Of a stretch of 64,000 nucleotides of DNA, positions 1 to 27,621 are shown piece by piece. The notes below the pieces were generated by a model that worked only from the letters and a program-made list of their open reading frames with translations, was not told where the DNA came from and did not search any database. Numbering within the stretch: the first letter of the stretch is position 1; the number at the start of each line of letters is the position of its first letter. Source of the stretch: Candidatus Anderseniibacteriota bacterium (GTDB lineage: Bacteria; Patescibacteriota; Andersenbacteria; UBA10190); assembly GCA_016197005.1 (NCBI GenBank), contig JACPWO010000001.1, positions 5,106-69,105 of the forward strand. Direction: 5' to 3'. The translations under genes were made by a program, and so were the position numbers.

Positions 1-681
1 GCTTGGATAAATGAGCAGCCATTTGATGAGCGTCTCCATATTGCCTCCTGGTATCCTTCCGTAATTTCACCTTTCTTTGAGGGACGCACAATGAGTTTGT
101 CATCACGAGATGACCATAGGGTGGGGTATGTGGTGACGTACCGAAATATGCTGGGGCGAGCCGGTGATACGATTGCGAGTGACGTCCTCGATGAGTTTAG
201 GAATCAGGTGCCCGCTCATACCGTTTATATTCAGGGTATGCCGTACGTTTGGGTGTATACCGTTCTCGGCCCCTATTATTTCCGGCAAAATGTAGGCGAG
301 TTGGTAACTGGTGTTGAAGTAGCTCAAACGGTTCCCATTTCCTTTACTAATTGGAAACAGATTGATTTCGGTCTGGCAACATTTGGTCGGCAGAATACCG
401 CTCCTCTTACGCTCCATATTAGGGAAGAGAAAAATGGACCAGACATCCGTACAGTTACAATTTCAACGGAGAATATTCCAGATCAAGGCTGGCAACCTTT
501 TGAATTTGCCGAAATTCCTAACTCCGCTGGTAAAACATATTATGTCGCGTTGACGAGCGAAATCGGACGACCAGGGAATGCGGTAACAGTTCGCTATTCG
601 AGTGAAGACTTTATGGCTGGTGTGGCTGTGTTTGGCGGCCGCGAGCGCGAAGGAGACTTAGCGTACCGACTCCAACCGTAA
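1..681 (+). CDS. C-terminal part of a GT-C-family membrane glycosyltransferase paralog (5' end lies outside the window)
   Basis: Frame 1 is open from nt 1 with no stop before the listed Met at 91. The translation (…NEQPFDERLHIASWY…VVTYRNMLGRAGD…HTVYIQGMPYVWVYTV) matches the conserved C-terminal domain of the paralogs at 6678..8624, 17968..19461 and 40049..41581. Confidence 0.6.
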   Translation, partial: AWINEQPFDERLHIASWYPSVISPFFEGRTMSLSSRDDHRVGYVVTYRNMLGRAGDTIASDVLDEFRNQVPAHTVYIQGMPYVWVYTVLGPYYFRQNVGELVTGVEVAQTVPISFTNWKQIDFGLATFGRQNTAPLTLHIREEKNGPDIRTVTISTENIPDQGWQPFEFAEIPNSAGKTYYVALTSEIGRPGNAVTVRYSSEDFMAGVAVFGGREREGDLAYRLQP

Positions 682-2488
682 GAAGAGAAATACTTACCCC
701 AAGAAGAAAGCCGGGCGAACGATACTGAAAGATGAGACGATGAGTGCCACCTACTTCTACTATCCAACCAACGCGGTTACTAATATTTTGCGCGGGTTGT
801 CCATTTACTTGCCACCCACTGGCGTAATTCGTATTGAGAATTACTGGTGTATCGGGTGGAGTTTCAACTTTCAATACAACTCGGTTTGGTGACCATTCTT
901 CAATAGTGTATGTTCCGCGTTCGTGCGTTTGTTCATTCTCTATATAGGCTGTGCCGTTGCCAATTTCGTCAGTTACCACTCGGACCGCTGGGGAAGGAGT
1001 AAGTACCGAGCAGTAATTCATACTGCCATATCCTTGGAGAATATCGGTGTACGCTCGAGAGTAGTCAACCTCATTATGACGTGTTTTGTAGGCAAAAGGT
1101 GAGTGTTGTAGTGGTTCCTTGGCGGGTGGTAAGGATTCCAGTGACCGCGGAAGAACAAATGCCTGCTCAGATAAGGGGTAGGACATAGTAAAGAGATCGA
1201 GAGCGATAAGAGCGAGGATTACGTAACTTATACCGCGCGTAGCAGCTTTCTTTTTGTTTTTTATTAAACTCTCCATACCAAATCCGGACAACAAAGAGAT
1301 TGGAATAACAGCGAATAGAACAACACGAGAAATATTCGATCGGGGGAACCACGAAGCTTGATCGAAGAAAGGTTTCAGGGTAGGCCCCGTCGAAGATAGG
1401 AGAATAGCCAGTATGGTACTCATACCAAGTCCAACGACAACGCGCCGCCGCCAATTAAAAATCACTCCGATACACGCCAAAACGGCGGCTACGGGCCCTA
1501 TATATGCCCCATATTCATGCCAACCACTCCCTTGATTTGGAATAACGTTCTCGACTCCATGTAGGTATCGTCCCAAGAAAATTTTGTGGAGTGATCCCAA
1601 CGTAGACGTAGAGCCGGCATACATTTGATCCTGAAACTGAGATAGCCATAGCAACACAGGGATAAGTTTTACCGCTGCCAGTCCTAACGCCCACAAACCA
1701 CTGTGAATATTAACCACCCAAGCATCTTTCTTTCGAGAAGTGAAAAATGGAAGGATAAGAAAAGCGAGAGCAGTGTACATCAGTAGGTAGATGCCGCCTT
1801 GGAAGAAAGTAAAGGCTAAGAAAATACCAGTAATAATATTCCACTTCGTAGATTTTTCGCGGTACGCAGCTAGCCAAGCCCAAAAGATCCACGGAATAAA
1901 CATGGCTGCAAATACATTGGGATGTCCTTCAACAATTTCCAGTAAGGTTACAGAACCAAATGTTGCTACCATACTTGCAACAAGTGAAGAGTACACAGAC
2001 AGGCCCAGACGCTTTCCTAAAAGGAGCATACCAACTCCGCCGACAGCGGTTGCTAGCCAAATAGCGAGTGGAAAGCCGTTTTCAATACCAAAGGCGAGCT
2101 CCACTAAGAAGGTAGGAGTGAAGAAACGAAATTCTGGATCGGCTAGGGCAGCAGTTCCTCCACAGATATATGGATTCCAGTGAGGAAGTTGGTGGTAGGT
2201 AAGAATTGTCTCGCGGTAAGAATGATGGAGAGAAAAATAATAATCCCAATCAGAGATTCCAAGCTGCCCGGTTGAAAACCAAAACCCGAGGGTGGCGAGC
2301 GGGGTAATAGCAACAATAATAAGAGCAGCTAACTGCCAACGCAGACGAGGAAAGAAACGGATAAGCAATATGCCGAGTAGAAATATGCCAGCAACAACCA
2401 CTCCTTGGTGCACGCCAAAGAGGGTATCCGGTGTTATCCTGAGCCACTCAAGGACGAACGTAGATACGGGATTCATAGAGGACGTCAT
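611..2488 (-). CDS. large polytopic membrane protein, family unassigned; N-terminal region is a paralog of 42271..44283
   Basis: 625 aa ORF with more than 10 hydrophobic helices and a roughly 150 aa hydrophilic C-terminal domain. It shares a Trp/Pro-rich N-terminal region with the 42271 protein. No catalytic motif recognised. Confidence 0.55.
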   Translation of the reverse strand: MTSSMNPVSTFVLEWLRITPDTLFGVHQGVVVAGIFLLGILLIRFFPRLRWQLAALIIVAITPLATLGFWFSTGQLGISDWDYYFSLHHSYRETILTYHQLPHWNPYICGGTAALADPEFRFFTPTFLVELAFGIENGFPLAIWLATAVGGVGMLLLGKRLGLSVYSSLVASMVATFGSVTLLEIVEGHPNVFAAMFIPWIFWAWLAAYREKSTKWNIITGIFLAFTFFQGGIYLLMYTALAFLILPFFTSRKKDAWVVNIHSGLWALGLAAVKLIPVLLWLSQFQDQMYAGSTSTLGSLHKIFLGRYLHGVENVIPNQGSGWHEYGAYIGPVAAVLACIGVIFNWRRRVVVGLGMSTILAILLSSTGPTLKPFFDQASWFPRSNISRVVLFAVIPISLLSGFGMESLIKNKKKAATRGISYVILALIALDLFTMSYPLSEQAFVLPRSLESLPPAKEPLQHSPFAYKTRHNEVDYSRAYTDILQGYGSMNYCSVLTPSPAVRVVTDEIGNGTAYIENEQTHERGTYTIEEWSPNRVVLKVETPPDTPVILNTNYASGWQVNGQPAQNISNRVGWIVEVGGTHRLIFQYRSPGFLLGVSISLLTVGVGTLSLLRARGRQTQPHQP

Positions 2489-4712
2489 CTTTTCCTTGAG
2501 AACGATATTTCGCTACTTCCTTCCATGGCTGAGGCATAGAAGTAATATACTCGCTTGAGCTCACATCAATAATAGTATGTATGTCATTGGTCAAGGGCTG
2601 TCCCTCTGCCAAGATCGTCACCTGCGATATAGGAAGATAAAAGGCAGCCGGTAAATTAAGTTCTTCAATAGCATAGCGCGGTTCAAAAGACCGAGCTGTC
2701 CGGGCCGCCCGGTATAAAACAGAATCTAGAGCTGCCGTGAGATTATGGGCATCAATATATTGATCGACTTTATTGAAAATAAGCAGACTACCAATGACAA
2801 AGGGTATGAGAGCGACGACCGGGAAAAAACGAGCGGCCGTAAAACGAACACTGCGAGGCATAAGCGCTGCTGCGATCATCAAGCATATTAAGGGATATGA
2901 CTGTTGGTAGTGCTTCGCAAACGGATGGAACCATATGGCGATAAGTATCTGTGAGGCAAGAACGATCGTCACTAAAATGCCACGCCAGCCGGCGCTTGCG
3001 AGAAAAGGCAGTGGTGCTGCAATTGTGATGCCAGTAATAAGAATGGGAATAAGTTTATTCATTTTTAGCGGATCACTGATTGTCAGCCAGATTGCCCATC
3101 CAATTACAGCAACCGCAATTACGCCAGCAACTATTTGTACTGATTGAGGAAATGACTCTTTTCGCTTCATCCAATAAATCCACCAGGCTAGCACTCCAAA
3201 AAGAGCTAGAGAAACGTACCCGCTGTCATACGGCAAAATGAGTTCTTCTTGTGTCCACGATCGCTTCCACATCGAAGAAATAATTGACCATGTTGAAATG
3301 GAAGCGTCAGAAAAGGCTTGGAATGAGTCAACGATTTGTAGTCGCTCTCCCTCAAAATAGGGTGTGTATACAGGGTTACCATAACGAACTGCATTGTTCA
3401 CAAAAAATGGAAGCACCAGGAAAAAAGCTGGTAAAAACATCCGCAGCAACACAAAAGAAGTTTTTTTAAGTGTGGAATGCTTGGCGCGTATCCCAATAAT
3501 TTCTTGACTGATCGTAGCGGCTAACAAAATAGCAGCTAGCAAAAAGCCTTCCTGTCTTGTCATAGCGGCATATCCGATCGTTATTCCAAAAACAATTTGC
3601 TGCCAGTGATGCCGACGATTGAAAAATAGAACCAGACTTAAAAGAAGGAGACAAGCATATACGGTATACGGCTCAGAACGTAGCGATGTTTCGAAGAAAT
3701 CTCGCTGGAATGCAAGTAAAGCCGCTGCGGTAAAAGCGGCCGGCCATGGGAGTAAAAGACTTCGGGCGAGAAGGTAGACGAGGATAATTGAGAAGGCAGC
3801 AGCGACACTGGAAATACTACGCATGTACGTGTGAGCATCGATCGTGGGATTTATTACTGCTGGAATGAGAAGAATTGGATATCCCGGTAGTCGTTTATCG
3901 AATTCAAACGGATTTTTGAATTTAGTTAGACGAGCAGCAATAGAAAGATAGTTGTAGGGATCTCCTCCGGACACGCCTCCCAAATTCTCCTCGATATCAA
4001 GCCGAAGATTTAACGTAAGTGCCGCTAAACAAATAACTATTCCCAATCCCACTGCTTTCTGCTTTTGTGCTGACAGATGCCGCCAACCAAATCTTCCAAC
4101 GAGGAGAGTAAAAATAATAAGGAGAGCTAACAGCGACCCACTTACTATAAGTTCTTCTTGGTACTTTTCTGCCAAAGTAGCAATTGATTGCCAGAGTGGT
4201 ACTTCCTCTTTAAGACTAACTGCGAACGTTCCTGCCTGTGGTCGCCCCTTCTCGTAGCGAATTAATGATGAAGGGGTGTAATTAGGATCATACCGCCAGC
4301 CAATGGCAGATGCTTGGGTAGCGTCAGGAACGGATACGTCAATACGAAGCTTTCCTGCTTCTGCTGCAATAGGTGGATCTAGGAGAATGGTAGCAAAGCG
4401 ATCGTCGCGAATTTCTGAAGAGGGAATAATGCCAGTAAAAATAGATTGGTCATCTGACAGACGAACTATTTCAATATGAATTGGAGATGGAGACCCCGTA
4501 TTACGAATGTCACTCATGATGAGCCCTAATCCCAATAGTGGTTTTTCAAAAGAAATTTCCTGCGACAAGGTACGATCGCCGAACAGAAGCCGGTGAGTGT
4601 TATATGAGTCGACGCCCTCGCTTATAATTGTTTGCCGTGAGGCTGGTAAGAAAGCTCCGATAATAGCAACGACAACGAGTAGAGTTATACTTAACACGAC
4701 ACGGGTGTTCAT
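2448..4712 (-). CDS. GT-C-fold membrane glycosyltransferase with N-terminal anchored extracytoplasmic domain
   Basis: 754 aa. It has an N-terminal signal-anchor helix, a roughly 200 aa soluble domain, then a multi-TM PMT_2/ArnT-like region (…AAMTRQEGFLLAAILLAA…). The architecture is shared with 12806, 15557 and 37755. Confidence 0.6.
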   Translation of the reverse strand: MNTRVVLSITLLVVVAIIGAFLPASRQTIISEGVDSYNTHRLLFGDRTLSQEISFEKPLLGLGLIMSDIRNTGSPSPIHIEIVRLSDDQSIFTGIIPSSEIRDDRFATILLDPPIAAEAGKLRIDVSVPDATQASAIGWRYDPNYTPSSLIRYEKGRPQAGTFAVSLKEEVPLWQSIATLAEKYQEELIVSGSLLALLIIFTLLVGRFGWRHLSAQKQKAVGLGIVICLAALTLNLRLDIEENLGGVSGGDPYNYLSIAARLTKFKNPFEFDKRLPGYPILLIPAVINPTIDAHTYMRSISSVAAAFSIILVYLLARSLLLPWPAAFTAAALLAFQRDFFETSLRSEPYTVYACLLLLSLVLFFNRRHHWQQIVFGITIGYAAMTRQEGFLLAAILLAATISQEIIGIRAKHSTLKKTSFVLLRMFLPAFFLVLPFFVNNAVRYGNPVYTPYFEGERLQIVDSFQAFSDASISTWSIISSMWKRSWTQEELILPYDSGYVSLALFGVLAWWIYWMKRKESFPQSVQIVAGVIAVAVIGWAIWLTISDPLKMNKLIPILITGITIAAPLPFLASAGWRGILVTIVLASQILIAIWFHPFAKHYQQSYPLICLMIAAALMPRSVRFTAARFFPVVALIPFVIGSLLIFNKVDQYIDAHNLTAALDSVLYRAARTARSFEPRYAIEELNLPAAFYLPISQVTILAEGQPLTNDIHTIIDVSSSEYITSMPQPWKEVAKYRSQGKDDVLYESRIYVRP

Positions 4713-6164: not shown

Positions 6165-6618
6165 CAAAAAAGAATAAAGGATTATTGTGTTTGTAGCCGC
6201 GGCGAGTTCAGGCCCGCATTTGCCGCAGGTAAAGGAGTGGTTCTAGCTCGTGCTGGAATCACTCCCGAATCCAAGCCGTTCTTTTCAGGGCTAGAACGGA
6301 TAAGATAATATGGTGTATCGCTGTGGAGGGTACTAGGAATTTGATGTAATTGTTGCATCAAACCATCTACAGCAACCTCGATGGAGAAAAGGCTATGAAG
6401 AGCCTCAGCTGTTTTAAGAAAAATTGAAAACACCTCGGCGCCGGCCATCTTCCTCCACCTCGCCAAGGAGACACCATGAACCGTATTCGCGGTCCCCCGT
6501 GAGTACCCGCTGTCGCGTTGATCCGTTACCACAAGGTGTCGAGTGGACTTTGTCCCTCAGGTGATTCAGCACGCTAGGTCGTTGCTGTCACAATGAAAAT
6601 ACTCGTCACTTGTGCGCC

Positions 6619-6653
6619 GCCCCGCTGCTACATGCACGGGGCTTTCTTTTTTT
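6619..6653 (+). terminator. rho-independent terminator (GCCCCG, 12 nt loop, CGGGGC, then TTTCTTTTTTT)
   Basis: Read directly: a 6 bp GC stem at 6619-6624 / 6637-6642 followed by a U-tract. It lies at the 3' end of the roughly 450 nt non-coding stretch 6165..6677. Confidence 0.5.
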
Positions 6654-6677
6654 ATACAAAGCAGTAGTGTAGTGGGC

Positions 6678-8624
6678 ATGTTCAAGGACTGGAGGACCTA
6701 TAAGATAGATATCCTTTTTGTTTTACTTATTTTTTTCGTTGCCCTTATTCCACGAATCGTCGATCTAGGTATATTTTTAACTGCTGACGAAAAAAACTGG
6801 ATTGGCCGATCCTATGAGTTTATTAAAGCGTTTAAAGATGTTCGGCTGAACGATATGTTGCAGACTACCCATCCTGGGGTACCGGCGTTGTGGCTTATGG
6901 GAATAGCCGTTACGGCAAAAATGTTTTTATCCCATATTCCGTTTTCGTCTGACACACTTCCTCAATTTATCTGGGCCACTCAGTTTCCCATCGCTTTCGT
7001 CAATGCACTCGCGGTGCCTACTATATACATTTTCCTTCGCAAACTAACTTCTGGTTACAAGATCCCTATTATTGCATCTCTCTTTATTGCTTTGGACCCA
7101 TTTATTATCGGCTATTCGCGGGTCGCTCACGTCGATGCACTTGTCATGAGCTTCCTATCTTTAGCAGCCCTCGCGACCATTATCTATGTTAGTAAGAACT
7201 TTGATCGACGCTGGCTGCTTGTTTCTGCCGTATTGTCCGGTTTGGCAATACTGACCAAGGCCCCAGCGATATATATAATTCCATTTTTCTGGTTAGCGGT
7301 GCTTTGGAAAAATGGCCTAAAACACTTTTCTTGGGATGGTCTCTCCGGGCGAGTACGGGATTTTGTCCTCTGGTCTCTTTTGATTGCAGTCATGATCGCA
7401 GTTATCTGGCCGGTATTTATTACGGTCGTAAACCCAAAGGGAAATGCAAATATATTACGACGTGACCTAAGTGTGGCTATAGCGACACCACATCACATGT
7501 CTGAAAACTATTCAGTGAAGGCTTGGCATTACCCAGCCGCTTTGCTAGTACGAACGAACCCCGTAACACTTGTGTTTGCTCTAGTGGCGGTCCTTTGGGT
7601 TGTGGTTGCAAGCATTCGCCGGCAGTCATCTCCGACCACCTATTGGTTACTCATAGCGTATGTTTTCTTCTTCGTTCTAATGATGACGCTTGGGGCCAAG
7701 AAGGGGGATCGGTATATACTGCCGGTCTTCCCGGCTATTGATGTATTAGCAGCAATTGGTCTCGTGTCCTTGGTAAAATTTACTAAATCCAGCTCTTTTA
7801 CAAAGTTGCTTCCAGCAGCTGCTGTTTTATATCTCGCCTTTACGGTATATACATATCACCCATACGCATTGGCGTATGCGAACCCCTTCTTTCCAGATAA
7901 TTTGAGCCAGGAGTTGGGGTGGGGTGAGGGACTGGAACAAGTAGCAAACTGGTTCAACGAGAACGATCCCAAAGCTCACGTCGCCTCTTGGTATGACCAA
8001 GAGCTTGGTGCATATACGACTGCGCGCGTTGTTTCGATTGGAGCGCACGAGCAACCACATATTAAATACGTCGTGCTATACAAAAACATGTTTGGTAGAG
8101 CGGCTGATCATCCAGCAAATGATTATATTGACGAATATTACAAAAAACGAGAGCCAGTATTTGTCGCGCACGTTCTTGGGAAGGAGTTTGCCTGGGTTTA
8201 TAAGAAGCAGGTGTATGAAACAATAACCGGCGAACTTTTACCGGGACAAAAAGTTAAACAAGTACTTGCTGCTGATACCGAGCCAATCGTTGGTCTTGAT
8301 ATCCAGATGGCTACATACAACGGGCGGGCAACAAGCGGGCAGGTAATAATAACATTAGAAGATTCCACCGAGAATCTGATCCATACCTGGACTATTCCCG
8401 TCTCCGACATTGCAGATGACAGCTGGCGCCGTCTCTTACTGCCTACACGTGCAGAAAAAGGAGAAATGCACGTTAGTATAACTGCCGAAGGGACTACTCG
8501 AGGGAATGCTCCGACTATTCGACGTACAACCGAGGGAATAGTAGCGGTTCGACTTTTATACGGTATACCCAGCAACCCCTACCACTCCGAGCAAACCAAG
8601 TTACTCCCTTCAAAGCTTAAATAG
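6678..8624 (+). CDS. GT-C-fold glycosyltransferase (GT39/83-like DE motif) with conserved C-terminal domain family
   Basis: The ORF-track start at 6612 would read through the terminator hairpin, so the start is moved to ATG 6678 (MFKDWRTY…). It has the loop-1 motif TADEKNW, many TM helices, and a C-terminal GWGEGLEQ / YVVLYKNMFGRAADHP block shared with four paralogs. Confidence 0.6.
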   Translation: MFKDWRTYKIDILFVLLIFFVALIPRIVDLGIFLTADEKNWIGRSYEFIKAFKDVRLNDMLQTTHPGVPALWLMGIAVTAKMFLSHIPFSSDTLPQFIWATQFPIAFVNALAVPTIYIFLRKLTSGYKIPIIASLFIALDPFIIGYSRVAHVDALVMSFLSLAALATIIYVSKNFDRRWLLVSAVLSGLAILTKAPAIYIIPFFWLAVLWKNGLKHFSWDGLSGRVRDFVLWSLLIAVMIAVIWPVFITVVNPKGNANILRRDLSVAIATPHHMSENYSVKAWHYPAALLVRTNPVTLVFALVAVLWVVVASIRRQSSPTTYWLLIAYVFFFVLMMTLGAKKGDRYILPVFPAIDVLAAIGLVSLVKFTKSSSFTKLLPAAAVLYLAFTVYTYHPYALAYANPFFPDNLSQELGWGEGLEQVANWFNENDPKAHVASWYDQELGAYTTARVVSIGAHEQPHIKYVVLYKNMFGRAADHPANDYIDEYYKKREPVFVAHVLGKEFAWVYKKQVYETITGELLPGQKVKQVLAADTEPIVGLDIQMATYNGRATSGQVIITLEDSTENLIHTWTIPVSDIADDSWRRLLLPTRAEKGEMHVSITAEGTTRGNAPTIRRTTEGIVAVRLLYGIPSNPYHSEQTKLLPSKLK

Positions 8625-8731: not shown

Positions 8732-9973
8732 ATGTTAACTATGACAAATATCTTACAGCTACGCCTGCGCGGTATCCGGTACATCTTACCGGTTGCTTTG
8801 ATCGTCGTGGGTACAGCATTATTCACCTCAAACCTTGAATCAGCTACCGGCGCTGGTAGTAACGGTATTACCGTCATCAACCCTCGCCTTTCCGCTGGTT
8901 ACAGTAACCTGCCTCGCACTCTGCGAGATCAGCCAGTTATTGAGGTATTCGTTAATTCACCAATTCATAACGCTCCAGCTGGAACATACGACAAGAACGC
9001 CGTTCCTTTCAGTTATAGCGTGAACTTCTTAGTCTGTAACAACATCCTCTTCAATGCTCGAGTTTTGTCTCGCTTTGATGCAATGGGTGGACACCACAGC
9101 AACTATGAAGGTACTGCACAGAGTAACTGGATTAAGCTTACTGATGATTCTCATGGCGAGAACCACTGTGGCGGATCTCTGTACTGTGTTGCTAGTCGAA
9201 CTGGTAGCCATACCCTTAACTTCTCAAGCCTGAAAGCTGGAGAAACAAAAGCTACCTTGCAGGTAGTTGGTAAGTGGCTCCGAAAACAACAGCCAAGCGA
9301 TTCCTTTGATCGGAATGATGCTTCCTTCACGGACAACAAAGCTACTGCTGTGAACATTTGGCTTAACTTTGGTGGATCAACTCCAACTCCTACCCCAACA
9401 CCTACGTCTACGCCAACAACTACTCCAACTCCTACCCCAACACCTACACCGACTCCAGCGCCAGGTGAACCGGGAATCCGAGTAACTAAGACTGATAACC
9501 GAGATATCACTCGTCCAGGACATACCTTGACGTATGAAATCAAAGTAGAAAATGTCGGTGAAGTTGATATGGGAGACGTTGAAATCAAAGATACCGTTCC
9601 TTCTTACCTTAAGATCACATCTGTCAGTGACAGTGGTCACATCTCTGGTCAGGTTGTTACCTGGAATGGAATTGATCTTGACACTGATGAATCTAAAACC
9701 TTCTACGTTAATGTAACGGTAAAGGATTCTGCCCCAAACGGCACCAACCTTCTTAACACCGTAGAAGCTTGTTCAGATGATCAGGACGTCTGCGATGAAG
9801 ATGACGATACAACTATTGTGGAAAAACCTCCGGTTGTAAAAGGAGTAACCAAAACAGTTGTTATCAAAGAAGTCCCAGTAACCGCTAAAACCGGTGGTGC
9901 AGCCTCTCTTGCTTTAACCAGCCTTGCTGGTGGAGCCAGTGGCCTCATTTACCTCAAGCGTCGTTACTTCTAA
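8732..9973 (+). CDS. secreted/cell-surface protein: signal peptide, unknown N-domain, Thr/Pro-rich linker, DUF11 repeat domain, sortase-like C-terminal signal
   Basis: The signal-like N-terminus is LRGIRYILPVALIVVGTALF. A 28 aa TP-rich linker is followed by a DUF11-type block (TLTYEIKVENVGEVDMGDVEIKDTVPSY…VTWNGIDL…). The C-terminus has a motif (VPVTAKTG), a hydrophobic helix and a KRRYF tail. The gene has its own promoter and terminator. The alternative start is ATG 8741. Confidence 0.7.
   Translation: MLTMTNILQLRLRGIRYILPVALIVVGTALFTSNLESATGAGSNGITVINPRLSAGYSNLPRTLRDQPVIEVFVNSPIHNAPAGTYDKNAVPFSYSVNFLVCNNILFNARVLSRFDAMGGHHSNYEGTAQSNWIKLTDDSHGENHCGGSLYCVASRTGSHTLNFSSLKAGETKATLQVVGKWLRKQQPSDSFDRNDASFTDNKATAVNIWLNFGGSTPTPTPTPTSTPTTTPTPTPTPTPTPAPGEPGIRVTKTDNRDITRPGHTLTYEIKVENVGEVDMGDVEIKDTVPSYLKITSVSDSGHISGQVVTWNGIDLDTDESKTFYVNVTVKDSAPNGTNLLNTVEACSDDQDVCDEDDDTTIVEKPPVVKGVTKTVVIKEVPVTAKTGGAASLALTSLAGGASGLIYLKRRYF
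9380..9464 (+). repeat. low-complexity ACN-CCN tandem repeat encoding (TP)n, with an internal 42 bp direct repeat
   Basis: The sequence ccaactcctaccccaacacctac occurs at 9384 and again at 9426. It encodes STPTPTPTPTSTPTTTPTPTPTPTPTPAP. Confidence 0.6.
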
Positions 9974-10000: not shown

Positions 10001-10034
10001 CCAACCCCGCTCTAACGCGGGGTTGGTTTTATTA
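10001..10034. terminator. bidirectional rho-independent terminator between convergent genes
   Basis: CCAACCCCGC, TCTAAC loop, GCGGGGTTGG, then TTTTATTAT on the + strand. On the - strand the same hairpin is followed by CTGTTTTGTTTG. The hairpin overlaps the last four codons and the stop of the - strand gene 10012..12816. Confidence 0.6.
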
Positions 10035-12816
10035 TAGGGAGGAAAAAAAGTAAACTTCCTATCAGTACTCCCGATAGGGTTAATATGCGCGCCCACATTA
10101 CTGCGGGTGATTTATATTTAAAGGAAATGATATGAGTACCAGTGGGTATCTCCGCAGTTTTAAAGATGGAATTACCAACAAGTTGCACTGATTCTTTTCC
10201 ATCAATATAGGTATGCCACTGAGGGGTAGTAGAATCCGTAAGTACCACATAGGCAGGTTGATCTGACGTCACCTCAATGTCCACCTGCGTGGGTTCGTAC
10301 CGTTTAATAACCGCGTTAGCGTTAACAGGTTGGGAAGAAGTTAAGATCTTTTCAGGTGGCTTCGGACCAGATAAATACACAACATTCCTTGGATCGAAGT
10401 CGGTGGCACTCATGGCGTGTCGTGTTTCATCAGCGGCAGATTTCCAGATACCAGAGGGAACGACAAACGCATGAGGATAGGCATTAGGATTGCTATATAA
10501 ACGAGCTGTTTTTGTACCAATGGGCACTTCTGCGACCACTTTATATCCGGCTTCTACCATCGTGTCGCTGTTAACTGATGATAAAAGTTGGCCCAAGTGA
10601 GTAATCCCAGCCATGTCCAAGAGTTTACGGCTACGTTCAATGGCGTGGATATTATCACCGTCAAGCGGCTCCTGATCATTCGCAAAAAAGAATTCAATAA
10701 ATTGTCGATACGGACGTATGGAAAGAGCACCAATCCAGCGGGCGCTGGAAGCGCCGGCAATGACATTAGTATGCCGCTCCAGAAGAGCAGCTTCAACGTC
10801 ATATGATGTTATAAGGTCTGGCTCAATGAGAGTTTGGACGGTTTTTTGGGAACGTTCCCACTCAGCTTCGGTTGGGTCAGAAGTGCGAACAAAATAGGCT
10901 TGATGTTCAACGTCAGGTTGTTCAATAAAAGGAACGGTAACATTGGAGTTAAAATCAGCGGATAGTGAAATCCAGGTCGTTGCTTCCGGTGAAATAATAC
11001 CTTCGTCAAAACAAATATGCTGTCGTGCACCCTGACCAACTCGGTGCAAGGATAAAGAAATTACTTGTTGGGGTGGCTGTCTTGGATCCCTGTACGCCCC
11101 TACATTTATCTCCCCTTCCTGACCGGCGAGGGCAGCTTCGAGTGGAAGATAGATGCAGTGAAAATCTTCAGTTGTTGGCGGGATCGGTTGGTAAACAGAG
11201 AATGTCGGCGAAATATGATCAGTATAACGAACAGCGGCAACATCTTCCGGTTTTTTTTGTAGGAGCAGCGGTCGGACATATAACCGGGGTGGCACCAGGT
11301 TTTGATCAGCAGCACGTACTGCTTCTTCAAGCGGAGAGACCGCAAAGGCGGTAGTGGCAGGTGTGGTTGGATTATAATTCCAGGCATAACTGAGCAATGT
11401 AACAACTGTCAGAATTGATAGTCCGTACATTTGCACTCGCCTTCCTCCTTTTCCGTGGACGACAAGTGCAATGACTAGGAAAATAATACTGAACGCAACC
11501 AAAAGAATATGTGGATCATTATGCTCCCATAGATATCGCAACTCGTGTTGTTCCACTCCTTCTTCCCATACCCTCATTAAGAAGGGACTTAAAAGAATAA
11601 GAGGAAAAGCAAGGGCGCTAATACCAAACCAGATTTTTTTTCTCCTACTTCCATGGAGAAATGCCTCGATGCCCGCGGTTGCTAACAGCGCGATGCCAAT
11701 GTCAAAGAAAAATACAAAGCGAGAGGCAATTGCAAACGAAGAGAAAATGAGCTTCTCAACTAAGTAGTGATAAAGTGGTGAGTACTTTCCTAAAGCTAAT
11801 AGAATTGAGAGTGCGACGAGAAGTCCACCCGCTGCATGTTCTGCTCTCCAGCGACGACGTTGGGTGAGCGCAGCGCCAGCTAATGCGAGTGGAATAATTC
11901 CGACGAATGCAGCTAGTTCCTGAAAGCCCTTTGCTCCCCAGTGGGTACTGTGATTTCCAAAGAAGTACGGGAGTATAAGTGTGACGGCGTGAACTGGTGG
12001 GTAGCTAAACTCCACTAACTCTTGTCGGGAGAGCGCCTCAGCTCGTTCGGTCTCGGGAATGAATTCCCAGAGAGGGAGTATGGCGAACGAAGATATACAA
12101 AGAGCTAGTAGTCCGGCTATAACGGTGTGTCCCATAACCTTACCAAAGTGCCGCCAGCTTGTTGCGTACTCAGCAAGGAAGCAGGCTCCAATAATGGCCG
12201 CGGCAATAAATGTGAGAAGAACAACTTGCGGCTGCGCTGACAATACAATTGCGGTTGCAATTGCTGCCAATGTCAGGTTGGAACGGAGAACGGGATGCTC
12301 AACGACACGGAGAGCGGCTAAGACTAGCCATGGCAACAGCATTGTCCCTGTATAAAAGTTAACGTGATTCAAATGCCCAATAGAAAATCCACTGAAGACA
12401 AAGACAATAGCTCCGACTGCGCTTGGGATTTCAGAAAAATGACGACGGCGCAGAAGAGCATAGAATCCGAGTAAACCGATCAAAAAGTAACTGGCAATCG
12501 AGATTTGGAGGAGCGTAAGTGGATGAAAACCGATCAGTCGTAGCAGAACATGAAGCGGGGTAAAGAAACCGAGCTGTCCCCACGCTAGGAGGGGATGTCC
12601 AAACCCAAATTCGTTGCTCCAAAGTGGGAGCTGCCAATTGTGTTGAAATTCCGCGTAGGCTTTTTCCAGTGGATAATAAATAATTTTAAGGTCGTCGAGA
12701 AAGAAGATATTACCAGCAAGAAATATGCGACCAAAAAAAATCGCCCACGTTAAAATAATAAAACTCAGCCCCACCCGATTTTGGTGAATGTACGTGAGTA
12801 ATCGGCTATTGTTCAT
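10012..12816 (-). CDS. YfhO-like GT-C-fold polytopic membrane protein with large C-terminal extracytoplasmic domain
   Basis: 934 aa. It has about 13 N-terminal TM helices with conserved His/Trp-rich loops, followed by a roughly 400 aa soluble C-terminal region and a final TM helix. The YfhO assignment is by architecture only. Confidence 0.5.
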   Translation of the reverse strand: MNNSRLLTYIHQNRVGLSFIILTWAIFFGRIFLAGNIFFLDDLKIIYYPLEKAYAEFQHNWQLPLWSNEFGFGHPLLAWGQLGFFTPLHVLLRLIGFHPLTLLQISIASYFLIGLLGFYALLRRRHFSEIPSAVGAIVFVFSGFSIGHLNHVNFYTGTMLLPWLVLAALRVVEHPVLRSNLTLAAIATAIVLSAQPQVVLLTFIAAAIIGACFLAEYATSWRHFGKVMGHTVIAGLLALCISSFAILPLWEFIPETERAEALSRQELVEFSYPPVHAVTLILPYFFGNHSTHWGAKGFQELAAFVGIIPLALAGAALTQRRRWRAEHAAGGLLVALSILLALGKYSPLYHYLVEKLIFSSFAIASRFVFFFDIGIALLATAGIEAFLHGSRRKKIWFGISALAFPLILLSPFLMRVWEEGVEQHELRYLWEHNDPHILLVAFSIIFLVIALVVHGKGGRRVQMYGLSILTVVTLLSYAWNYNPTTPATTAFAVSPLEEAVRAADQNLVPPRLYVRPLLLQKKPEDVAAVRYTDHISPTFSVYQPIPPTTEDFHCIYLPLEAALAGQEGEINVGAYRDPRQPPQQVISLSLHRVGQGARQHICFDEGIISPEATTWISLSADFNSNVTVPFIEQPDVEHQAYFVRTSDPTEAEWERSQKTVQTLIEPDLITSYDVEAALLERHTNVIAGASSARWIGALSIRPYRQFIEFFFANDQEPLDGDNIHAIERSRKLLDMAGITHLGQLLSSVNSDTMVEAGYKVVAEVPIGTKTARLYSNPNAYPHAFVVPSGIWKSAADETRHAMSATDFDPRNVVYLSGPKPPEKILTSSQPVNANAVIKRYEPTQVDIEVTSDQPAYVVLTDSTTPQWHTYIDGKESVQLVGNSIFKTAEIPTGTHIISFKYKSPAVMWARILTLSGVLIGSLLFFLPIIKPTPR

Positions 12817-15004
12817 ATCCGGGGTAGAATGCGGTCTTACCAGTCATGTCGATAATAATATCATTGGCAGCTACGGAATCAGGTATAGAATCATACCGCT
12901 CTATTGATACTGGGGAAGTGCTTCCTAAGAGACGGAATAAATAAGCTGAGAGTGAAGTAGTTTGATCGGGATGAACACCAATGAGCAAAATACGAGCGTG
13001 CGGATCTACCGGTTGTTGTTGTTGCTTGTATTGGCGAGCTGCTTCTTGGATGTATTCGGCTTGCTCTCGGTAAAAGCGAGTCCGTTCAGGCACCCGTGCT
13101 TGCCATGTACCGTAGATAACTAAGACAAGTAACAGTGTCCCGCCAACCCGTGTCCGATATAGAGCCGGTACCCGCAGTACGAGAAAGCCGACAAGTAACG
13201 CTAATCCGAATACGGATAAGTATATCCAGCGAAAACGCCAATCGTTAGCTAGGAAAAGAACAGGACCGAGAAATGCGAGCCACCATACTCCAGCGAGCAA
13301 GATTCCATGAAAGACTTTTTCATCTTTTCGTAGCCACATAAGCAAGCCGGCGTATAGTAGTAATAAAACGATGCCTGGATAGTAGGGAGATTGAAGCCGA
13401 GATTGATTAAATAGAGTACTAAGAGGTTTTTCCACTACCGAAATTCCTGGAACGTTAATTGGCCACAACCAGTTTTCAGCCGTCCAGTCAGCATACGTAA
13501 GCAGATTTTGTCCGAGCATTGAGGGTGTAAGTCTAGTTGTGTATGTATCATTTGTTGCGGTAACTGGAGGAAGGGTGGGATCACTAAACACAGCTGCGCG
13601 CAAGAACAAAAGCAGACACGCTACTACAACATATGGAGCAGCTGCTACCGCCGCTGACTTTTTAAGTGTCTTCAGTGTTAGAACATCAATTGCAAACGCA
13701 ATGACAGGTAAGATAAGAACATGTTCCTTAGAGAGAAACGCAAGTGCGTACAATACAAGCGAGGCACATAAGTAACGTCCTTGTGCTTTAGAGCGCCACC
13801 AAATGAAACAAAGAAGAGATGCTATGGCAAATAAGCCAGCCAAGATGTCATGGTTTGAGCTCCACCAATACGCAGTACCAATTTTTGAACTATGTGCAAT
13901 CCAAGTAGCCGCCGTCGCTGCAGCAGCAATAGGTGAGCGAAGAATAATAAGAGCCAGTACGAATAGTCCGACGGCAGTGATAGCAATAAGGAGAATATTC
14001 AAAAAGTAAGCAGCTTCTGCTTTCGGCCCGACGCTATGCCAGATAATTGATGAAAACAAGCCGGCACTTACTGGTCGCCAAAAATGAAGATCAAATTGAG
14101 AATATTCGTCAGCTTCCAGATAATCATGCGCCAAAAAAAGTTTCCAGCTATCCGCGCCTTTATACTGTTCGGCCCGCGCAAGCAAAGCGAGATCATCATG
14201 GAAATAGAATAAATGCGTTGCTGGCCAGTAAATACATAGTGTTGCCACGATGAGGCCACCCGCCCACAACGCGAATGCTCGGTGGGAGAGTGTGGTGAGT
14301 CCCTCCAGAGCATCAGGTATCGGCTCGGGAAAACCGTATAATTTGAGAGCAAGGCCCCCTATAACAATAAGCGCCAATGCAGCAAGTAAGTGATGGTGTT
14401 GGGTATCTGTTAACCAACGAACAAGGAGAATAGCAATAGGTGGTCTCTCGTACAAAACAAATCCGATATTACCTTGCTTTTCCTCTCGTTGAGAAAATGT
14501 TTTTCCTTCTAAGTATTTAGATGCATCACTTTCATACCGTATATGAATCGCGTCGGCTTTTGAGACGCTAAGCGTCTCAAGTGTAAAGTCATACGTTTTA
14601 CCACTGGTGCCAGTGATCGGTTCAAAAAGGAAAAAAAGAGTTGGAACATAAGAATCCAGTTGCTGCTGAGCATCGACGTATTGAATATGTGTCTGATCAT
14701 AAAACTGGGCAGCAGGCCCAGATAAACTACGAATAGTCTCATTACTTTCTACTTCCTTTACGGTGAAAATGACTTCAGTTTCTGAAGCAGGAATTTCCGT
14801 ACTTGCTAACCAAAATCTAAAACCATGCAAAGAGTTGGTGGGAGCAACAATACGTTGGGTAAGTGGATTCCCGGCGAATACTTGATGGATGTGTTTGTCA
14901 TCGGGGGTTTGCACTAGGCTAACAGTTCGAAATGGTCGTTTGCCTCCACTAAAGATGAGCCCGACCAATAGGATCGCAAGGAGTATTACTATTTTTTTAT
15001 TCAT
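12806..15004 (-). CDS. GT-C-fold membrane glycosyltransferase with N-terminal anchored extracytoplasmic domain
   Basis: The start is taken at the internal ATG (MNKKIVILLAILLVG…), which is preceded by AAGGA and removes the overlap with the upstream gene. The rest is a roughly 200 aa soluble domain followed by a multi-TM region. Confidence 0.55.
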   Translation of the reverse strand: MNKKIVILLAILLVGLIFSGGKRPFRTVSLVQTPDDKHIHQVFAGNPLTQRIVAPTNSLHGFRFWLASTEIPASETEVIFTVKEVESNETIRSLSGPAAQFYDQTHIQYVDAQQQLDSYVPTLFFLFEPITGTSGKTYDFTLETLSVSKADAIHIRYESDASKYLEGKTFSQREEKQGNIGFVLYERPPIAILLVRWLTDTQHHHLLAALALIVIGGLALKLYGFPEPIPDALEGLTTLSHRAFALWAGGLIVATLCIYWPATHLFYFHDDLALLARAEQYKGADSWKLFLAHDYLEADEYSQFDLHFWRPVSAGLFSSIIWHSVGPKAEAAYFLNILLIAITAVGLFVLALIILRSPIAAAATAATWIAHSSKIGTAYWWSSNHDILAGLFAIASLLCFIWWRSKAQGRYLCASLVLYALAFLSKEHVLILPVIAFAIDVLTLKTLKKSAAVAAAPYVVVACLLLFLRAAVFSDPTLPPVTATNDTYTTRLTPSMLGQNLLTYADWTAENWLWPINVPGISVVEKPLSTLFNQSRLQSPYYPGIVLLLLYAGLLMWLRKDEKVFHGILLAGVWWLAFLGPVLFLANDWRFRWIYLSVFGLALLVGFLVLRVPALYRTRVGGTLLLVLVIYGTWQARVPERTRFYREQAEYIQEAARQYKQQQQPVDPHARILLIGVHPDQTTSLSAYLFRLLGSTSPVSIERYDSIPDSVAANDIIIDMTGKTAFYPGYEQ

Positions 15005-15015
15005 ATCCTTGATAG

Positions 15016-15534
15016 TCAGTTGCGACATTGCGTCTCCGTACCACCACACACGCGATAGAGTGCTTTATCATCCTCATGAAGAATTCGATAATCAAATTTT
15101 CGTGTTTCGTCTTCATCAAAAGCAATCACATCATTTTGAGGAAGTTCCAAGCTTGCTTCGAAGAAATATCCCTTAGCTTCTCCTTTTCGTATGTCTGTAA
15201 CACAGTAACGATAGTACTGTGTATCTGACTCGCGAATATCGTGTGGGGAAACATCAATATATTGGCCCTTTACGATTGGTGATTGTGGTCCAAAAAACCA
15301 GCTGTCAACCGTGCGAGAATCGGTGCAATGAGGCTTTGATTTCGGGGGGGTGGGGTAATACTCGCGGTCGTTGTGATATACCTCTACTGCTTGTTTCAAA
15401 TTGGTTATGTCTTCTACCCGTAAGTGATCGCGTGCCTGGGTACGGGCGTAGAGAAAAGCTGGTATAAGAATAATTAAGGCAATCCCGGCGGCAATCCCGA
15501 TTGCCAATAGTTCCCATTTCAGGTCATGATTCAT
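15016..15534 (-). CDS. pseudopilin-like (GspG/type IV pilin-like N-terminal helix) small secreted protein, paralog of 36125..36631
   Basis: Start placed at Met80 of the long ORF (MNHDLKWELLAIGIAAGIALIIL), by analogy with the paralog. The ARTQARDHLRVEDITNLKQAVEVYHNDREYYPTP block resembles the GspG 'AR-D-L-AL-Y-DNG-YPT' region. SWFFGxQSP, IPHDVRES, YCxTDIR and YRVCGGT blocks are shared with 36125. The exact start is uncertain. Confidence 0.45.
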   Translation of the reverse strand: MNHDLKWELLAIGIAAGIALIILIPAFLYARTQARDHLRVEDITNLKQAVEVYHNDREYYPTPPKSKPHCTDSRTVDSWFFGPQSPIVKGQYIDVSPHDIRESDTQYYRYCVTDIRKGEAKGYFFEASLELPQNDVIAFDEDETRKFDYRILHEDDKALYRVCGGTETQCRN

Positions 15535-15556
15535 ACTATGTATATCCGTGTGAATT

Positions 15557-26885: not shown

Positions 26886-27603
26886 CTTTTCGATAAATAA
26901 ATATTCTACGTAATGCGGTATGCCGACGAACACCTTCCCCGACTATTGCTTCTAATTTTTCACCCAATGCTAGTAACCACGGTGGACCTGCCGGTATAAA
27001 AACAGTAGTTTTCTCCTTAAGTTTAGTGCAGGCAGCTCCGGCAAAGGTCGATGTGATAAGACGCCTTTGTACCATTCGATGCGGGCCTTCAGAATGATGT
27101 AATCCTAGGACGGGCGCAAGTAAATGGATCGGTTCCCAGGCAACGGTTGGCGTTGTCAAGACGATAGCTCCTCCAGGTTTTGTAACACGTACTAGTTCTT
27201 GTATATATTTTCGCGGCCAAGGTACGTGTTCTAACGTTTCGTAACTTAACGTTACATCAAAGGTATTGTCAGCAACAGGAAGTGGAAGATTAGTAAATTG
27301 TTGGACAACCGCTGGAACATTCGCTGCCTGTAACCGTTTAGTCGCAACATCCTTAAAAAATTGAGAAACAACCAAACAGGTAAAAGAAAGGTTTTTATCT
27401 TTGTTGCGTTCATAGAAAAATTGCGAACCGATTCCTGTGCGAGCATCAATGTCTAACACATGAGCGCCAGACGGAATAACAAAAAGTGGAGCGCTATCTG
27501 TAAACCGCCGCTCGTAGGACGCCGTTTTGGCATTTATTTCGTCATAACCAACCGTTTTATCCCAATGTTGGGCCACATCTGCCAAACTCCAATTACGCTT
27601 CAT
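26845..27603 (-). CDS. class I SAM-dependent methyltransferase
   Basis: VLDIDARTGIGS…TLEHVPWP…VTKPGGAIVLTTP. Confidence 0.65.
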   Translation of the reverse strand: MKRNWSLADVAQHWDKTVGYDEINAKTASYERRFTDSAPLFVIPSGAHVLDIDARTGIGSQFFYERNKDKNLSFTCLVVSQFFKDVATKRLQAANVPAVVQQFTNLPLPVADNTFDVTLSYETLEHVPWPRKYIQELVRVTKPGGAIVLTTPTVAWEPIHLLAPVLGLHHSEGPHRMVQRRLITSTFAGAACTKLKEKTTVFIPAGPPWLLALGEKLEAIVGEGVRRHTALRRIFIYRKDGQNLAKNPRQYH

Positions 27604-27621
27604 GTGTGTTACTATACGCGC

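Follow-up and report, generated by a model that had tools for sequence, protein, structure and literature searches.

EmbA, EmbB, and EmbC of Mycobacteriales (GT53; PDB codes 6x0o and 7bvc) have two extra N-terminal TM helices and a periplasmic jelly-roll, followed by a core of 13 TM helices with an acidic motif in its first loop and then by a C-terminal periplasmic domain, a Ca-binding jelly-roll CBM (PMC7341804, PMC7305291). In EmbB, the CBM at the N-terminus is held by the first two TM helices and precedes the GT-C fold (PMC7341804; PMC7305291). Enzymes of the PMT_2/GT39-GT83 type (ArnT and PMT-like proteins) also possess a multi-TM GT-C_A core, and their acidic motif, of DE or DD type, comes right behind TM1. 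In ArnT, however, a soluble domain is missing, and PMTs carry a MIR domain inside a loop; neither has an N-terminal TM-domain-TM cassette. A further point of comparison is TfpW of Pseudomonas aeruginosa group IV pili, a GT-C encoded directly downstream of pilA that glycosylates pilin (bioRxiv 10.1101/2020.04.19.049825).

We analysed a window of 64,000 nucleotides from a Candidatus Andersenbacteria (Patescibacteria/CPR) genome. Glycan-assembly genes are dense in it, including those for GT2, GT4, and GT9 enzymes, sugar aminotransferases, an epimerase, MurJ, and a Wzx-like flippase, with GT2 polyprenyl-phosphate-GT-like genes and flippases both represented. A preliminary description of this DNA had noted a TM anchor, a soluble domain, and a multi-TM core in four genes, here called A to D. 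All four ORFs are present, and the basic observation was confirmed by hydropathy and by the structure model of A. The N-terminal TM helices span residues 3-20 of A, 5-21 of B, 18-38 of C, and 14-34 of D (hydropathy, with AlphaFold secondary structure for A), and each is followed by a hydrophilic stretch of 164-182 aa and then by many TM helices. The order common to the four proteins is a TM helix, a soluble domain of 150-180 aa, a second TM helix (TMx), a GT-C core, and a small C-terminal domain. The database gene models, which place the start of B at 15004 (732 aa, P0084) and that of C at 15572 (799 aa, P0068), were adopted for the following features.

2448..4712, minus strand: gene A, 754 aa; TM0, jelly-roll ectodomain, helix and TMx, GT-C core, C-terminal alpha/beta domain
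4653..4706, minus strand: TM0 of A, residues 3-20, N-in/out signal-anchor helix
4197..4646, minus strand: N-terminal beta-sandwich (jelly-roll) ectodomain of A, residues 23-172
4098..4196, minus strand: amphipathic helix (173-183) and TMx (185-205), the second extra TM helix of A, taking the chain back to the cytoplasm
2694..4070, minus strand: GT-C core of A, residues 215-673; its first helix, TM1 (215-241), precedes the EL1 motif
3948..3980, minus strand: EL1 motif of A, GGVSGGDPYNY, residues 245-255
2451..2690, minus strand: small C-terminal alpha/beta soluble domain of A, residues 675-754
12806..15004, minus strand: gene B, 732 aa, architecture as in A
14396..14941, minus strand: N-domain of B, residues 22-203
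14333..14395, minus strand: TMx of B
14192..14209, minus strand: EL1 motif of B, FYFHDD
15572..17971, plus strand: gene C, 799 aa, named 'glycosyltransferase family 39 protein' by NCBI
15686..16189, plus strand: N-domain of C, residues 39-206
16190..16246, plus strand: TMx of C
16349..16369, plus strand: EL1 motif of C, NNDEGAY
37755..40043, minus strand: gene D, 762 aa, core and C-terminal domain homologous to those of C
39942..40004, minus strand: TM0 of D
39429..39941, minus strand: ectodomain of D, residues 35-205
39372..39428, minus strand: TMx of D
39246..39266, minus strand: EL1 motif of D, VNDEQFY (NDEQ conserved)

Several details of the preliminary description required revision. The soluble domain had been given as 180-220 aa, whereas its folded part covers about 150 aa (residues 23-172 of A), and it does not follow a single anchor into the core: given that the domain is trailed by its own TM helix, TMx, the module is TM-domain-TM. 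A richness in Gly and Thr holds for D (0.20) and C (0.16) but not for A (0.12) or B (0.14), against a background of 0.123. All four proteins possess a C-terminal soluble domain as well, and the N-domain is thus no substitute for one. Nor are the N-domains low-complexity regions.

The product of gene A is 100% identical to HYR90_03005 of a Candidatus Andersenbacteria MAG. AlphaFold modelled the whole protein with a pLDDT of 93.2 and a pTM of 0.91, assigning helices to residues 3-20, 173-183, 185-205, and 215-241 and strands to residues 23-172, and the N-domain in isolation reached a pLDDT of 95.8. This domain adopts a galactose-binding/CBM/PHR-type jelly-roll beta-sandwich fold, for which structural matches are strong; the best neighbours are virion proteins, not CBMs, and PHR domains are also among them. 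Jelly-roll folds also serve protein-protein contacts, as in PHR, APC10, and virion proteins.

The whole A model matched GT-C structures in Foldseek with a probability of 1.0 and E values of 5e-7 to 1e-3, including ALG9 (5e-7), ArnT (2e-6; structure 5f15), and EmbB (9e-6) as well as AglB, STT3, PglB, Pmt, AftB, and PimE. Given that its core has no Pfam match and that the A profile found no solved GT-C among PDB sequences, the GT-C identity of A rests on the predicted fold and the motif. Within that motif, D251, the putative catalytic acid, is nearly invariant among 65 homologues. PMT_2 (PF13231) gave no match for A and scored 25.1 bits for B, 20.7 for C, and 21.7 for D (E 2e-5 to 5e-4), under the gathering threshold of 26.1 bits, which some homologues do exceed in precomputed annotation. 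With these just subthreshold scores, family-profile alignments to A at 96%, and the Foldseek matches of A, the assignment of a GT-C core made in the preliminary description was borne out. The PMT-type DE motif is present in C, where D262 and E263 are invariant in 12 homologues, and in D; B has HDD. The proposal that the four proteins form one sub-family is not supported. The A core is closest to a module-less paralogue at 27460..29196 (E 1.2e-11) and to core-only homologues of ~545 aa, five of which begin right at TM1 and GGVSGGDAYNY without the cassette, and C groups with D.

The resemblance of A to D to the Emb proteins lies in the two extra N-terminal TM helices that enclose a jelly-roll, a layout defined from PMC7341804 and recognised from the model for A and from the hydropathy pattern for B, C, and D. 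In both groups, the first core loop also carries an acidic motif and a C-terminal domain comes behind the core, and EmbB chains gave the longest Foldseek alignments with the A model (766-794 columns). A relationship at the level of sequence was not detected: A to D have no match to the Pfam family Arabinose_trans, and the A1 and A4 profiles found no Emb chain among PDB sequences. The present cores are PMT_2/ArnT/ALG-like and of about 450 aa, and the C-terminal domain of A is mixed alpha/beta and of about 80 aa (DSSP), unlike the 13-helix core and jelly-roll CBM of Emb, and the host is a CPR bacterium. An N-domain-first layout thus has a precedent in Emb, and what is new is the undescribed domain family that builds it.

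Profile comparison demonstrates that A, B, and C have homologous N-domains. In hhalign, A aligned with B at 76% (E 2e-5) and B with C at 82%, and the B domain matched a 187-sequence profile at 99.2% (E 3e-19), although pairwise BLAST of the N-regions was mostly non-significant. For D, the N-domain alone showed no significant similarity to the family, but full-length A-family and D-family profiles aligned co-linearly through it (96.2%, E 2.7e-9, A32-604/D45-637), which weakly supports homology of the D domain as well. In the A-domain family, G33, D35, H40, D103, D104, and R140 are invariant; the polar residues conserved across families are the Q of a VGQxF motif and R140. Further copies of the domain lie in the same window.

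58732..59949, minus strand: fifth protein with an N-terminal module, 405 aa; TM helix 10-28, then the domain, then ~7 TM helices
59410..59856, minus strand: domain of the fifth protein, residues about 32-180
8190..8588, plus strand: copy at the C-terminus of the PMT_2 GT-C 6612..8624, residues about 527-659
259..675, plus strand: copy at the C-terminus of a GT-C-like protein truncated by the window start, within ORF 1..681

The fifth protein, which has no Pfam match, is encoded directly upstream of MurJ (57185..58735). The two C-terminal copies matched the domain at 92-99.5% in hhalign. ORF 1..681 is the C-terminal end of a protein cut by the window start and not a short independent gene; it has a weak DUF4082 match of 16.5 bits.

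A profile search for relatives, as had been suggested earlier, found 1108 protein clusters with the domain (E<=1e-3). Among 113 new representatives of the best matches, the N-domain is combined with at least six TM helices in 67, and another 11 consist of the TM-domain-TM unit alone and measure about 200-245 aa. The layout of A, with the domain ahead of the core, recurs in no fewer than about 100 clusters (50% identity), and with EmbA/B/C built in the same way (PMC7341804, PMC7305291), the description of this N-terminal placement as unusual was overstated. The polytopic enzymes fused to the domain are heterogeneous and unrelated (PMT_2, DUF1616, DUF6541, YfhO, and Acyl_transf_3), and the taxa comprise CPR, Chloroflexota, Acidobacteriota, Firmicutes, Deltaproteobacteria, and ANME-1 and DPANN archaea. 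In three Anaerolineae genomes, a stand-alone cassette has GT-C-like genes on its upstream side and, immediately downstream, a gene for a Wzt ABC ATPase. What A to D have in common is thus a shuffled domain cassette that elsewhere is C-terminal or alone, demonstrably a mobile evolutionary unit, unlike the Emb arrangement.

The domain family is undescribed. No entry of Pfam, NCBIfam, or PDB covers it, the N-domains of A to D had no Pfam match even at E<=10, and the domain profile matched none of the PDB sequences. DUF4082 (PF13313), PHR (PF08005), and the present profile all fall on the same stretch of P0129, a distant family member (DUF4082 score 49.2 bits, above the 28.4-bit threshold). DUF4082, itself an uncharacterised family, gave no match in 59 of 60 representatives of the domain family.

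The predicted topology strongly supports an extracytoplasmic N-domain, as the preliminary description had assumed; a cytoplasmic placement was not obtained. The loop between TMx and TM1 is basic in A, C, and D, with two to three K/R in these proteins and the fifth protein, and the net charge of the ectodomains is acidic. The EL1 motif, likewise acidic and obligatorily external, follows right behind TM1 in all four proteins. Loop charges and this motif, one helix further on, together place the N-domain outside the cell. The B loop is acidic, with atypical charges, and the topology of B therefore rests on homology.

Pseudopilin-like genes had been reported beside two of the four genes. Small pilin-like genes are indeed found there.

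15016..15534, minus strand: pilin-like protein of 172 aa, 11 nt upstream of B on the same strand and 37 nt from the divergent C
36125..36631, minus strand: paralogous pilin-like protein of 168 aa, in the string D, GT4, pilin-like, one gene away from D

The two paralogues are 42% identical. The adjacency stands, but pilin likeness is weak: it is confined to the N-terminal helix (phmmer against Geopilin PilA-N, E 0.004; GspG, 0.49), and a regex for the prepilin peptidase motif (G|F/M-T-L-x-E), applied to every ORF of 60 aa or more, hit none of the small pilin-like ORFs and found the motif only in the interior of two large membrane proteins. The adjacency is kept in two other genomes, with C orthologues at 34-37% and a B orthologue at 36% identity. 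In L017, the order is YfhO, B orthologue, pilin-like gene (54% identity), divergently the C orthologue, PMT, methyltransferase, GT4, and D orthologue; in L018, a pilin-like gene (48% identity) adjoins the C orthologue. An S/T/P-rich patch behind the N-terminal helix is conserved in the pilin-like proteins (YPTPPKSKPHCT, YVTPPTTTSPCT).

Overall, the interpretation put forward in the preliminary description is partly supported. In our favoured reading, to which we assign a probability of roughly 0.55, A, B, C, and probably D are outer-face GT-Cs whose ectodomain cassette positions the acceptor. They are predicted to be polyprenyl-phosphate-sugar-dependent enzymes at the outer face of the cytoplasmic membrane. 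The N-in/out signal-anchor helix would lead into the ~150-aa jelly-roll, the amphipathic helix, and the second TM helix, which would return the chain inside so that the canonical TM1 of the GT-C can start. This would keep the beta-sandwich on the extracytoplasmic side, in a rigidly docked position next to the catalytic EL1 loop and the C-terminal domain. The comparison with the N-terminal CBM of EmbA/B/C suggests that the most likely role of the N-domain is to bind or position the acceptor, either a glycan growing on the cell surface or a surface protein that is glycosylated, and acceptor binding would set the acceptor specificity of each paralogue. The conserved pilin-like protein encoded directly upstream of B may be this acceptor. 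We infer with moderate confidence that the domain binds a ligand and takes part in acceptor selection.

We consider it unlikely that the N-domain recognises a protein acceptor instead of a glycan, with B, C, and also D being PMT-like protein O-glycosyltransferases that modify the co-encoded pilin-like proteins in the manner of TfpW and pilA, the PHR-like jelly-roll serving to dock this substrate. The pilin-like gene between B and C, an arrangement kept in L017 and L018 despite low orthologue identity, the PMT-type DE motif of C and D, the S/T/P-rich patch, the PHR domains among the structural neighbours, and the TfpW precedent for pilin glycosylation (bioRxiv 10.1101/2020.04.19.049825) are consistent with such a role. 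The likeness to TfpW is one of gene arrangement. In both systems handling of the acceptor is presumed to fall to an accessory soluble domain, but that of TfpW is a C-terminal TPR and that here an N-terminal jelly-roll. Against such a role, the small proteins, with their weak pilin match and no prepilin cleavage motif, are not canonical prepilins. In addition, no pilin-like gene neighbours A or the fifth protein, the domain family occurs on many enzyme types and beside Wzt polysaccharide exporters, and adjacency is silent on which part of an enzyme touches the substrate.

It is likewise improbable that the N-domain binds no ligand itself and serves as a structural or regulatory lid, one that steadies the mobile periplasmic loops or the C-terminal domain, mediates oligomerisation, or acts as a wall spacer. 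The pTM of whole A implies that the N-domain meets the remainder of the protein at a fixed interface, and the existence of core-only A homologues indicates that the core can function without the cassette. The domain also exists on its own with two TM helices, and unrelated enzymes carry it at one end or the other; this argues, however, for an autonomous function and not for a fold-specific brace, and the conserved polar residues (the VGQxF Q, R140, and D103-D104) are more typical of a binding site. A cytoplasmic N-region, or four unrelated low-complexity linkers, is essentially refuted: despite the BLAST results and the B loop charges, the A domain is a confidently modelled beta-sandwich, A, B, and C are homologous in profile-profile comparison, a TM helix stands on either side of the domain and the external EL1 motif follows one helix later, and the loops of A, C, and D obey the positive-inside rule.

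Returning to the reading of the cassette as an acceptor-positioning module, we tentatively propose a wider version of it, in which TM-jelly-roll-helix-TM might be a widespread portable acceptor-recognition subunit for extracytoplasmic, polyprenyl-dependent envelope enzymes, which in Andersenbacteria would belong to PMT-like GT-Cs that glycosylate a co-transcribed pilin-like surface protein. Such a subunit would partner with several GT-C families and with YfhO/DUF6541-like, DUF1616, and acyltransferase-3 proteins, and would work either as an N- or C-terminal fusion or as a protein of its own next to Wzm/Wzt exporters. If this proposal is true, these genes would provide a first genetic handle on protein and pilus glycosylation in Patescibacteria.

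The four open reading frames for which an N-terminal module ahead of a GT-C core had been proposed are all present in the window, and we refer to their products as A to D.

2448..4712, minus strand: A, GT-C gene with N-terminal module
12806..15004, minus strand: B, GT-C gene with N-terminal module
15572..17971, plus strand: C, GT-C gene with N-terminal module
37755..40043, minus strand: D, GT-C gene with N-terminal module

The four proteins are alike by hydropathy: an N-terminal transmembrane (TM) helix (TM0) precedes 164–182 hydrophilic residues, after which come many TM helices and, at the C-terminus, a soluble tail of 80–130 amino acids. The order of elements in the preliminary description was thus confirmed, but not its single membrane anchor, given that the soluble region is followed by two TM helices before the first conserved GT-C motif is reached. 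The elements in A to D are arranged as TM0, ectodomain, a second extra helix (TMx), a short loop, the first GT-C core helix (TM1), and an acidic motif in the first extracytoplasmic core loop (EL1), which reads GGVSGGDPYNY in A, FYFHDD in B, NNDEGAY in C, and VNDEQFY in D. It is established for the GT-C superfamily that the loop after TM1 faces outward and holds the catalytic acid (see also PMC11127046). The soluble domain, located two helices upstream of this loop, should therefore also lie outside the cell, with the N-terminus inside; the position of EL1 thus argues strongly for the extracytoplasmic location originally proposed and against a cytoplasmic one. The loop between TMx and TM1 is acidic in B, whereas in A, C, and D, as well as in an additional window protein (58732..59949), it contains two or three Lys or Arg and no acidic residues. 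The ectodomains carry a net negative charge. The Gly and Thr richness also attributed to them holds for D (0.20) and C (0.16), relative to a background of 0.123, but not for A or B.

An AlphaFold model of A, for which an alignment of 65 homologues served as input, had a mean pLDDT of 93.2 and a pTM of 0.91. The model comprises a helix at residues 3–20 (TM0), twelve strands (residues 23–172), a helix (173–183), the TM helix TMx (185–205), TM1 (215–241), a helical bundle that extends up to residue 673, and a small alpha/beta domain (680–752). The pTM implies that the N-domain is docked rigidly on the rest of the modeled protein. Given that gene A had no match in Pfam and that an A-family profile found no solved GT-C or CBM among PDB chain sequences, the structural match to GT-C enzymes is of importance: the top matches of the model in a Foldseek search of the PDB were all GT-C enzymes, with E values of 5e-7 for ALG9, 2e-6 for ArnT, and 9e-6 for EmbB, together with AglB, STT3, PglB, ALG12, Pmt4, AftB, and PimE. 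The longest alignments, of 766–794 columns, were those with Emb chains. The isolated N-domain of A, modeled from a 32-sequence alignment, gave a pLDDT of 95.8 and matched P1v1 (TMq of 0.67) as well as APC10, the furin P-domain, and CBM6 in Foldseek. The predicted structure is that of a galactose-binding-like jelly-roll rather than of a low-complexity linker.

Three other proteins of the window carry the same domain.

1..681, plus strand: final part of a longer GT-C-like protein that the window edge truncates; its tail holds the same beta-sandwich domain
6612..8624, plus strand: PMT_2/PMT GT-C with the domain C-terminal (residues ~527–659), not N-terminal
58732..59949, minus strand: 405 amino acids, a TM helix, the domain at ~32–180, then ~7 TM helices; no Pfam match

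The ORF 91..681 was considered as a small stand-alone protein; ORF 1..681 can be aligned to the C-terminal region of 6612..8624, however, so that it is the end of a cut GT-C, and this candidate was rejected. ORF 1..681 yielded the sole Pfam match to DUF4082 in the window, a weak one, and residues ~527–659 of 6612..8624 also matched DUF6212 weakly. The product of 58732..59949 is shorter than a typical GT-C, and its gene lies upstream of MurJ (57185..58735), the start of which it overlaps by 4 nt.

Pairwise BLAST of the four N-domains linked B with C (E = 6e-7) and found no other link. An HMM of the A-family N-domain matched three of the 306 ORFs of the window, with the N-domain of B (E = 1.5e-3) and the C-terminus of ORF 1..681 (E = 5e-9) among them. 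Probabilities obtained with hhalign were 76% for A and B, 82% for B and C, 92% for A and the C-terminus of 6612..8624, and 94% and 96% for A and C, respectively, with the C-terminus of ORF 1..681. The N-domain of B matched a 187-sequence domain profile at 99.2% (E = 3e-19), and the product of 58732..59949 matched it with E = 6.6e-9. A word-index search returned only one homologue of D, profile scans of genome contigs and metagenome contigs returned none, and a third orthologue (40% identity) was recovered by synteny in another genome (L017). The N-domain of D alone did not match the domain family significantly, even with a three-sequence profile. Full-length profiles of the A and D families were nevertheless co-linear through the N-domain (96.2%, E = 2.7e-9, A32–604/D45–637), and the local alignment of C with D begins within it, at C129/D118. 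D is thus, as judged from these alignments, a probable but unproven member of the family.

The four genes had been described as a GT-C sub-family. What they share is better described as a mobile cassette, consisting of TM0, the jelly-roll N-domain of ~150 amino acids, a helix, and TMx. Five homologues of A of ~545 amino acids (P0048, P0055, P0057, P0058, and P0060) are without TM0, the domain, and TMx and start directly at TM1 and GGVSGGDAYNY; they are natural deletion controls for the cassette, and one such core-only homologue, named from an Andersenbacteria genome, is present on 13 contigs. With core-only HMMs, the nearest window paralogue of A was the module-less 27460..29196 on the plus strand (E = 1.2e-11; 578 amino acids, 9 TM helices, no Pfam match), and the nearest to the core of C was D (6.9e-10), followed by 6612..8624 with its C-terminal domain. 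Possession of the cassette therefore does not define a monophyletic group of cores, and the idea of a monophyletic sub-family was rejected.

With a profile built from 28 domain sequences, a search of 1.84 billion cluster representatives yielded 1108 proteins at E ≤ 1e-3, 260 of them at E ≤ 1e-10. Among the best 150 of the 1108 matches were 113 new proteins, in 67 of which the domain lies at ~25–200 and is followed by at least six TM helices. Twenty-nine of the 113 are short (<400 amino acids) with few TM helices, including 11 complete proteins of ~200–245 amino acids with one TM helix on either side of the domain; four have many TM helices and then a C-terminal domain; and 13 fall outside these classes, some being large multidomain surface proteins. 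The cores behind N-terminal cassettes were heterogeneous, including A-like, B-like, and C-like GT-Cs as well as DUF1616, DUF6541/YfhO-like, DUF6798, and an acyltransferase-3. Neither Pfam (E ≤ 10) nor NCBIfam matched the isolated N- and C-domains, and the domain profile had no match among PDB chain sequences. DUF4082, which is uncharacterised in the literature, and PHR were each matched in only 1 of 60 representatives, both on P0129 (388–483 and 397–494, respectively), where both overlap the stretch that the domain profile matches.

Given that a 10-sequence alignment of the stand-alone proteins was too divergent, reference genomes were scanned with a 4-sequence subset. The domain was found as stand-alone proteins of 228–257 amino acids in Anaerolineae, N-terminal to 9–10 TM helices in proteins of 714 amino acids in Acidobacteriaceae, C-terminal on multi-TM proteins in Eubacteriales and a deltaproteobacterium, and in a 375-amino acid protein of an ANME-1 archaeon with TM helices before and after it. 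It is also present in a DPANN archaeal protein. In the Acidobacteriaceae protein (L012/L013 4851..6995), the domain at ~50–180 is followed by a long linker, and an apparent lipoprotein signal (…LLLSVCAC…) in place of the TM anchor may be a variant tether. Three Anaerolineae genes for the stand-alone form, with a TM helix before and after the domain (L002 4962..5648, L003 1138..1851, and L005 4845..5618), are immediately upstream of, or overlap, a gene for a Wzt ABC-transporter ATPase (ABC_tran plus the Wzt_C carbohydrate-binding domain), and another stand-alone copy adjoins GT2, DegT, and epimerase genes. Generic GT-C-like or DUF2142 membrane-protein genes are also located upstream at L002 and L005, and the one at L002 resembles 27460..29196 (28% identity over 177 amino acids). 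A Rosetta-stone reading of the Anaerolineae neighbours as specific orthologues of the core of A was rejected, their GT-C similarity being only generic and weak.

How GT-C enzymes, which build cell envelopes, select their acceptors is not well understood. Among their accessory domains, those studied best are the CBMs of Emb enzymes, which adjoin the ethambutol target site. EmbA/B/C also provide the closest described architecture, in which TMH1 and TMH2 flank a jelly-roll PDN and PL2 holds the catalytic DDX motif (Zhang et al., PMC7305291). The window proteins share with them an N-terminal beta-sandwich between two extra helices, whereas they have no sequence or Pfam relationship to Emb, their core is of a different type, and their C-terminal domain differs; the Emb N-CBM did not rank among the top structural matches to the N-domain. 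The layout, described initially as unusual, is so relative to ArnT and PMT-type enzymes, but the word is too strong for GT-Cs overall; the initial finding is real and, given the clear Emb precedent, does not define a new category.

Genes for envelope glycans are packed very densely in the window. At least a dozen encode polytopic GT-C-like proteins (PMT_2, PMT, YfhO, and DUF6541-like), and alongside them are genes for GT2, GT4, and GT9 enzymes, DegT aminotransferases, an epimerase, methyltransferases, a polysaccharide deacetylase, MurJ, and a Wzx-like flippase. Amid this CPR glycan-biosynthesis locus, 25539..26933 (minus strand) encodes an FrhB/FdhB-like protein of the F420 hydrogenase/dehydrogenase beta-subunit family. 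A Candidatus Andersenbacteria MAG encodes a protein, HYR90_03005, with 100% identity to A; HYR90_03140 is identical to D, and the protein identical to C bears the NCBI name 'glycosyltransferase family 39 protein'. These database matches share one 576-kb contig.

In the mechanism that we favour, the N-domain would bind or position the acceptor, to which sugar would be transferred from a polyprenyl-phosphate sugar. The CBM-like fold, the analogy to Emb, the glycan-locus context, and the autonomy of the domain as a free-standing protein lend moderate support to such a role. A rival, or special case, is that adjacent GT-Cs would glycosylate pilin-like proteins as candidate acceptors, two of which are encoded in the window.

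15016..15534, minus strand: 172 amino acids, pilin-like helix at the N-terminus; gene 11 nt upstream of B, divergent from C
36125..36631, minus strand: paralogue of 15016..15534 (42% identity), two genes downstream of D

Conserved in both paralogues are an S/T/P-rich patch (YPTPP...C-T) and, at the C-terminus, the motif YRVCGGTxTxC. Two other genomes encode pilin-like orthologues (L017 9389..9916 and L018 4817..5398, 48–54% identity) at the same position beside the orthologues of B and C. In L017 (GCA_040876835.1, Andersenbacteria), YfhO, the B orthologue, and the pilin-like gene (54% identity) are followed divergently by the C orthologue, PMT, a methyltransferase, and GT4, with the D orthologue a few genes beyond the conserved stretch; the order YfhO, B, pilin-like, divergent C, and PMT is thus kept between 10012..19461 of the window and L017 4364..13921, at protein identities of 36–54%. 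The neighbourhood is partly conserved in the third genome, L018. This conservation, despite enzymes only 34–40% identical in the three genomes, favours the pilin-like proteins as acceptors, as does the parallel with pilA-tfpW, in which the pilin gene lies just upstream of the gene for the GT-C that glycosylates its product (bioRxiv 10.1101/2020.04.19.049825). Neither of these small proteins has a prepilin cleavage motif, however, and their similarity to pilins is weak. Inside the GT-C cluster, 8732..9973 (plus strand) encodes a DUF11/DUF7507 surface-type protein with a long Thr-Pro repeat linker (PTPTPTPTSTPTTTPTPTPTPTPTP), plausibly another candidate substrate for O-glycosylation.

The Emb-type layout, an N-terminal CBM on two extra helices, is thus no mycobacterial oddity; it recurs with an unrelated, unannotated domain family that is without Pfam, NCBIfam, or PDB coverage and that spans about a thousand protein clusters in many phyla. 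The interest lies in this widespread family, in its split and fused forms, and in the conserved link to pilin-like genes; putative acceptor-recognition modules that are split, fused, and swapped amount to a natural experiment. Glycosylation of the envelope and pili of Patescibacteria is essentially unexplored and has been named an open issue (PMC11623550), and the conserved pilin-like/GT-C operon is a concrete candidate system for its study.
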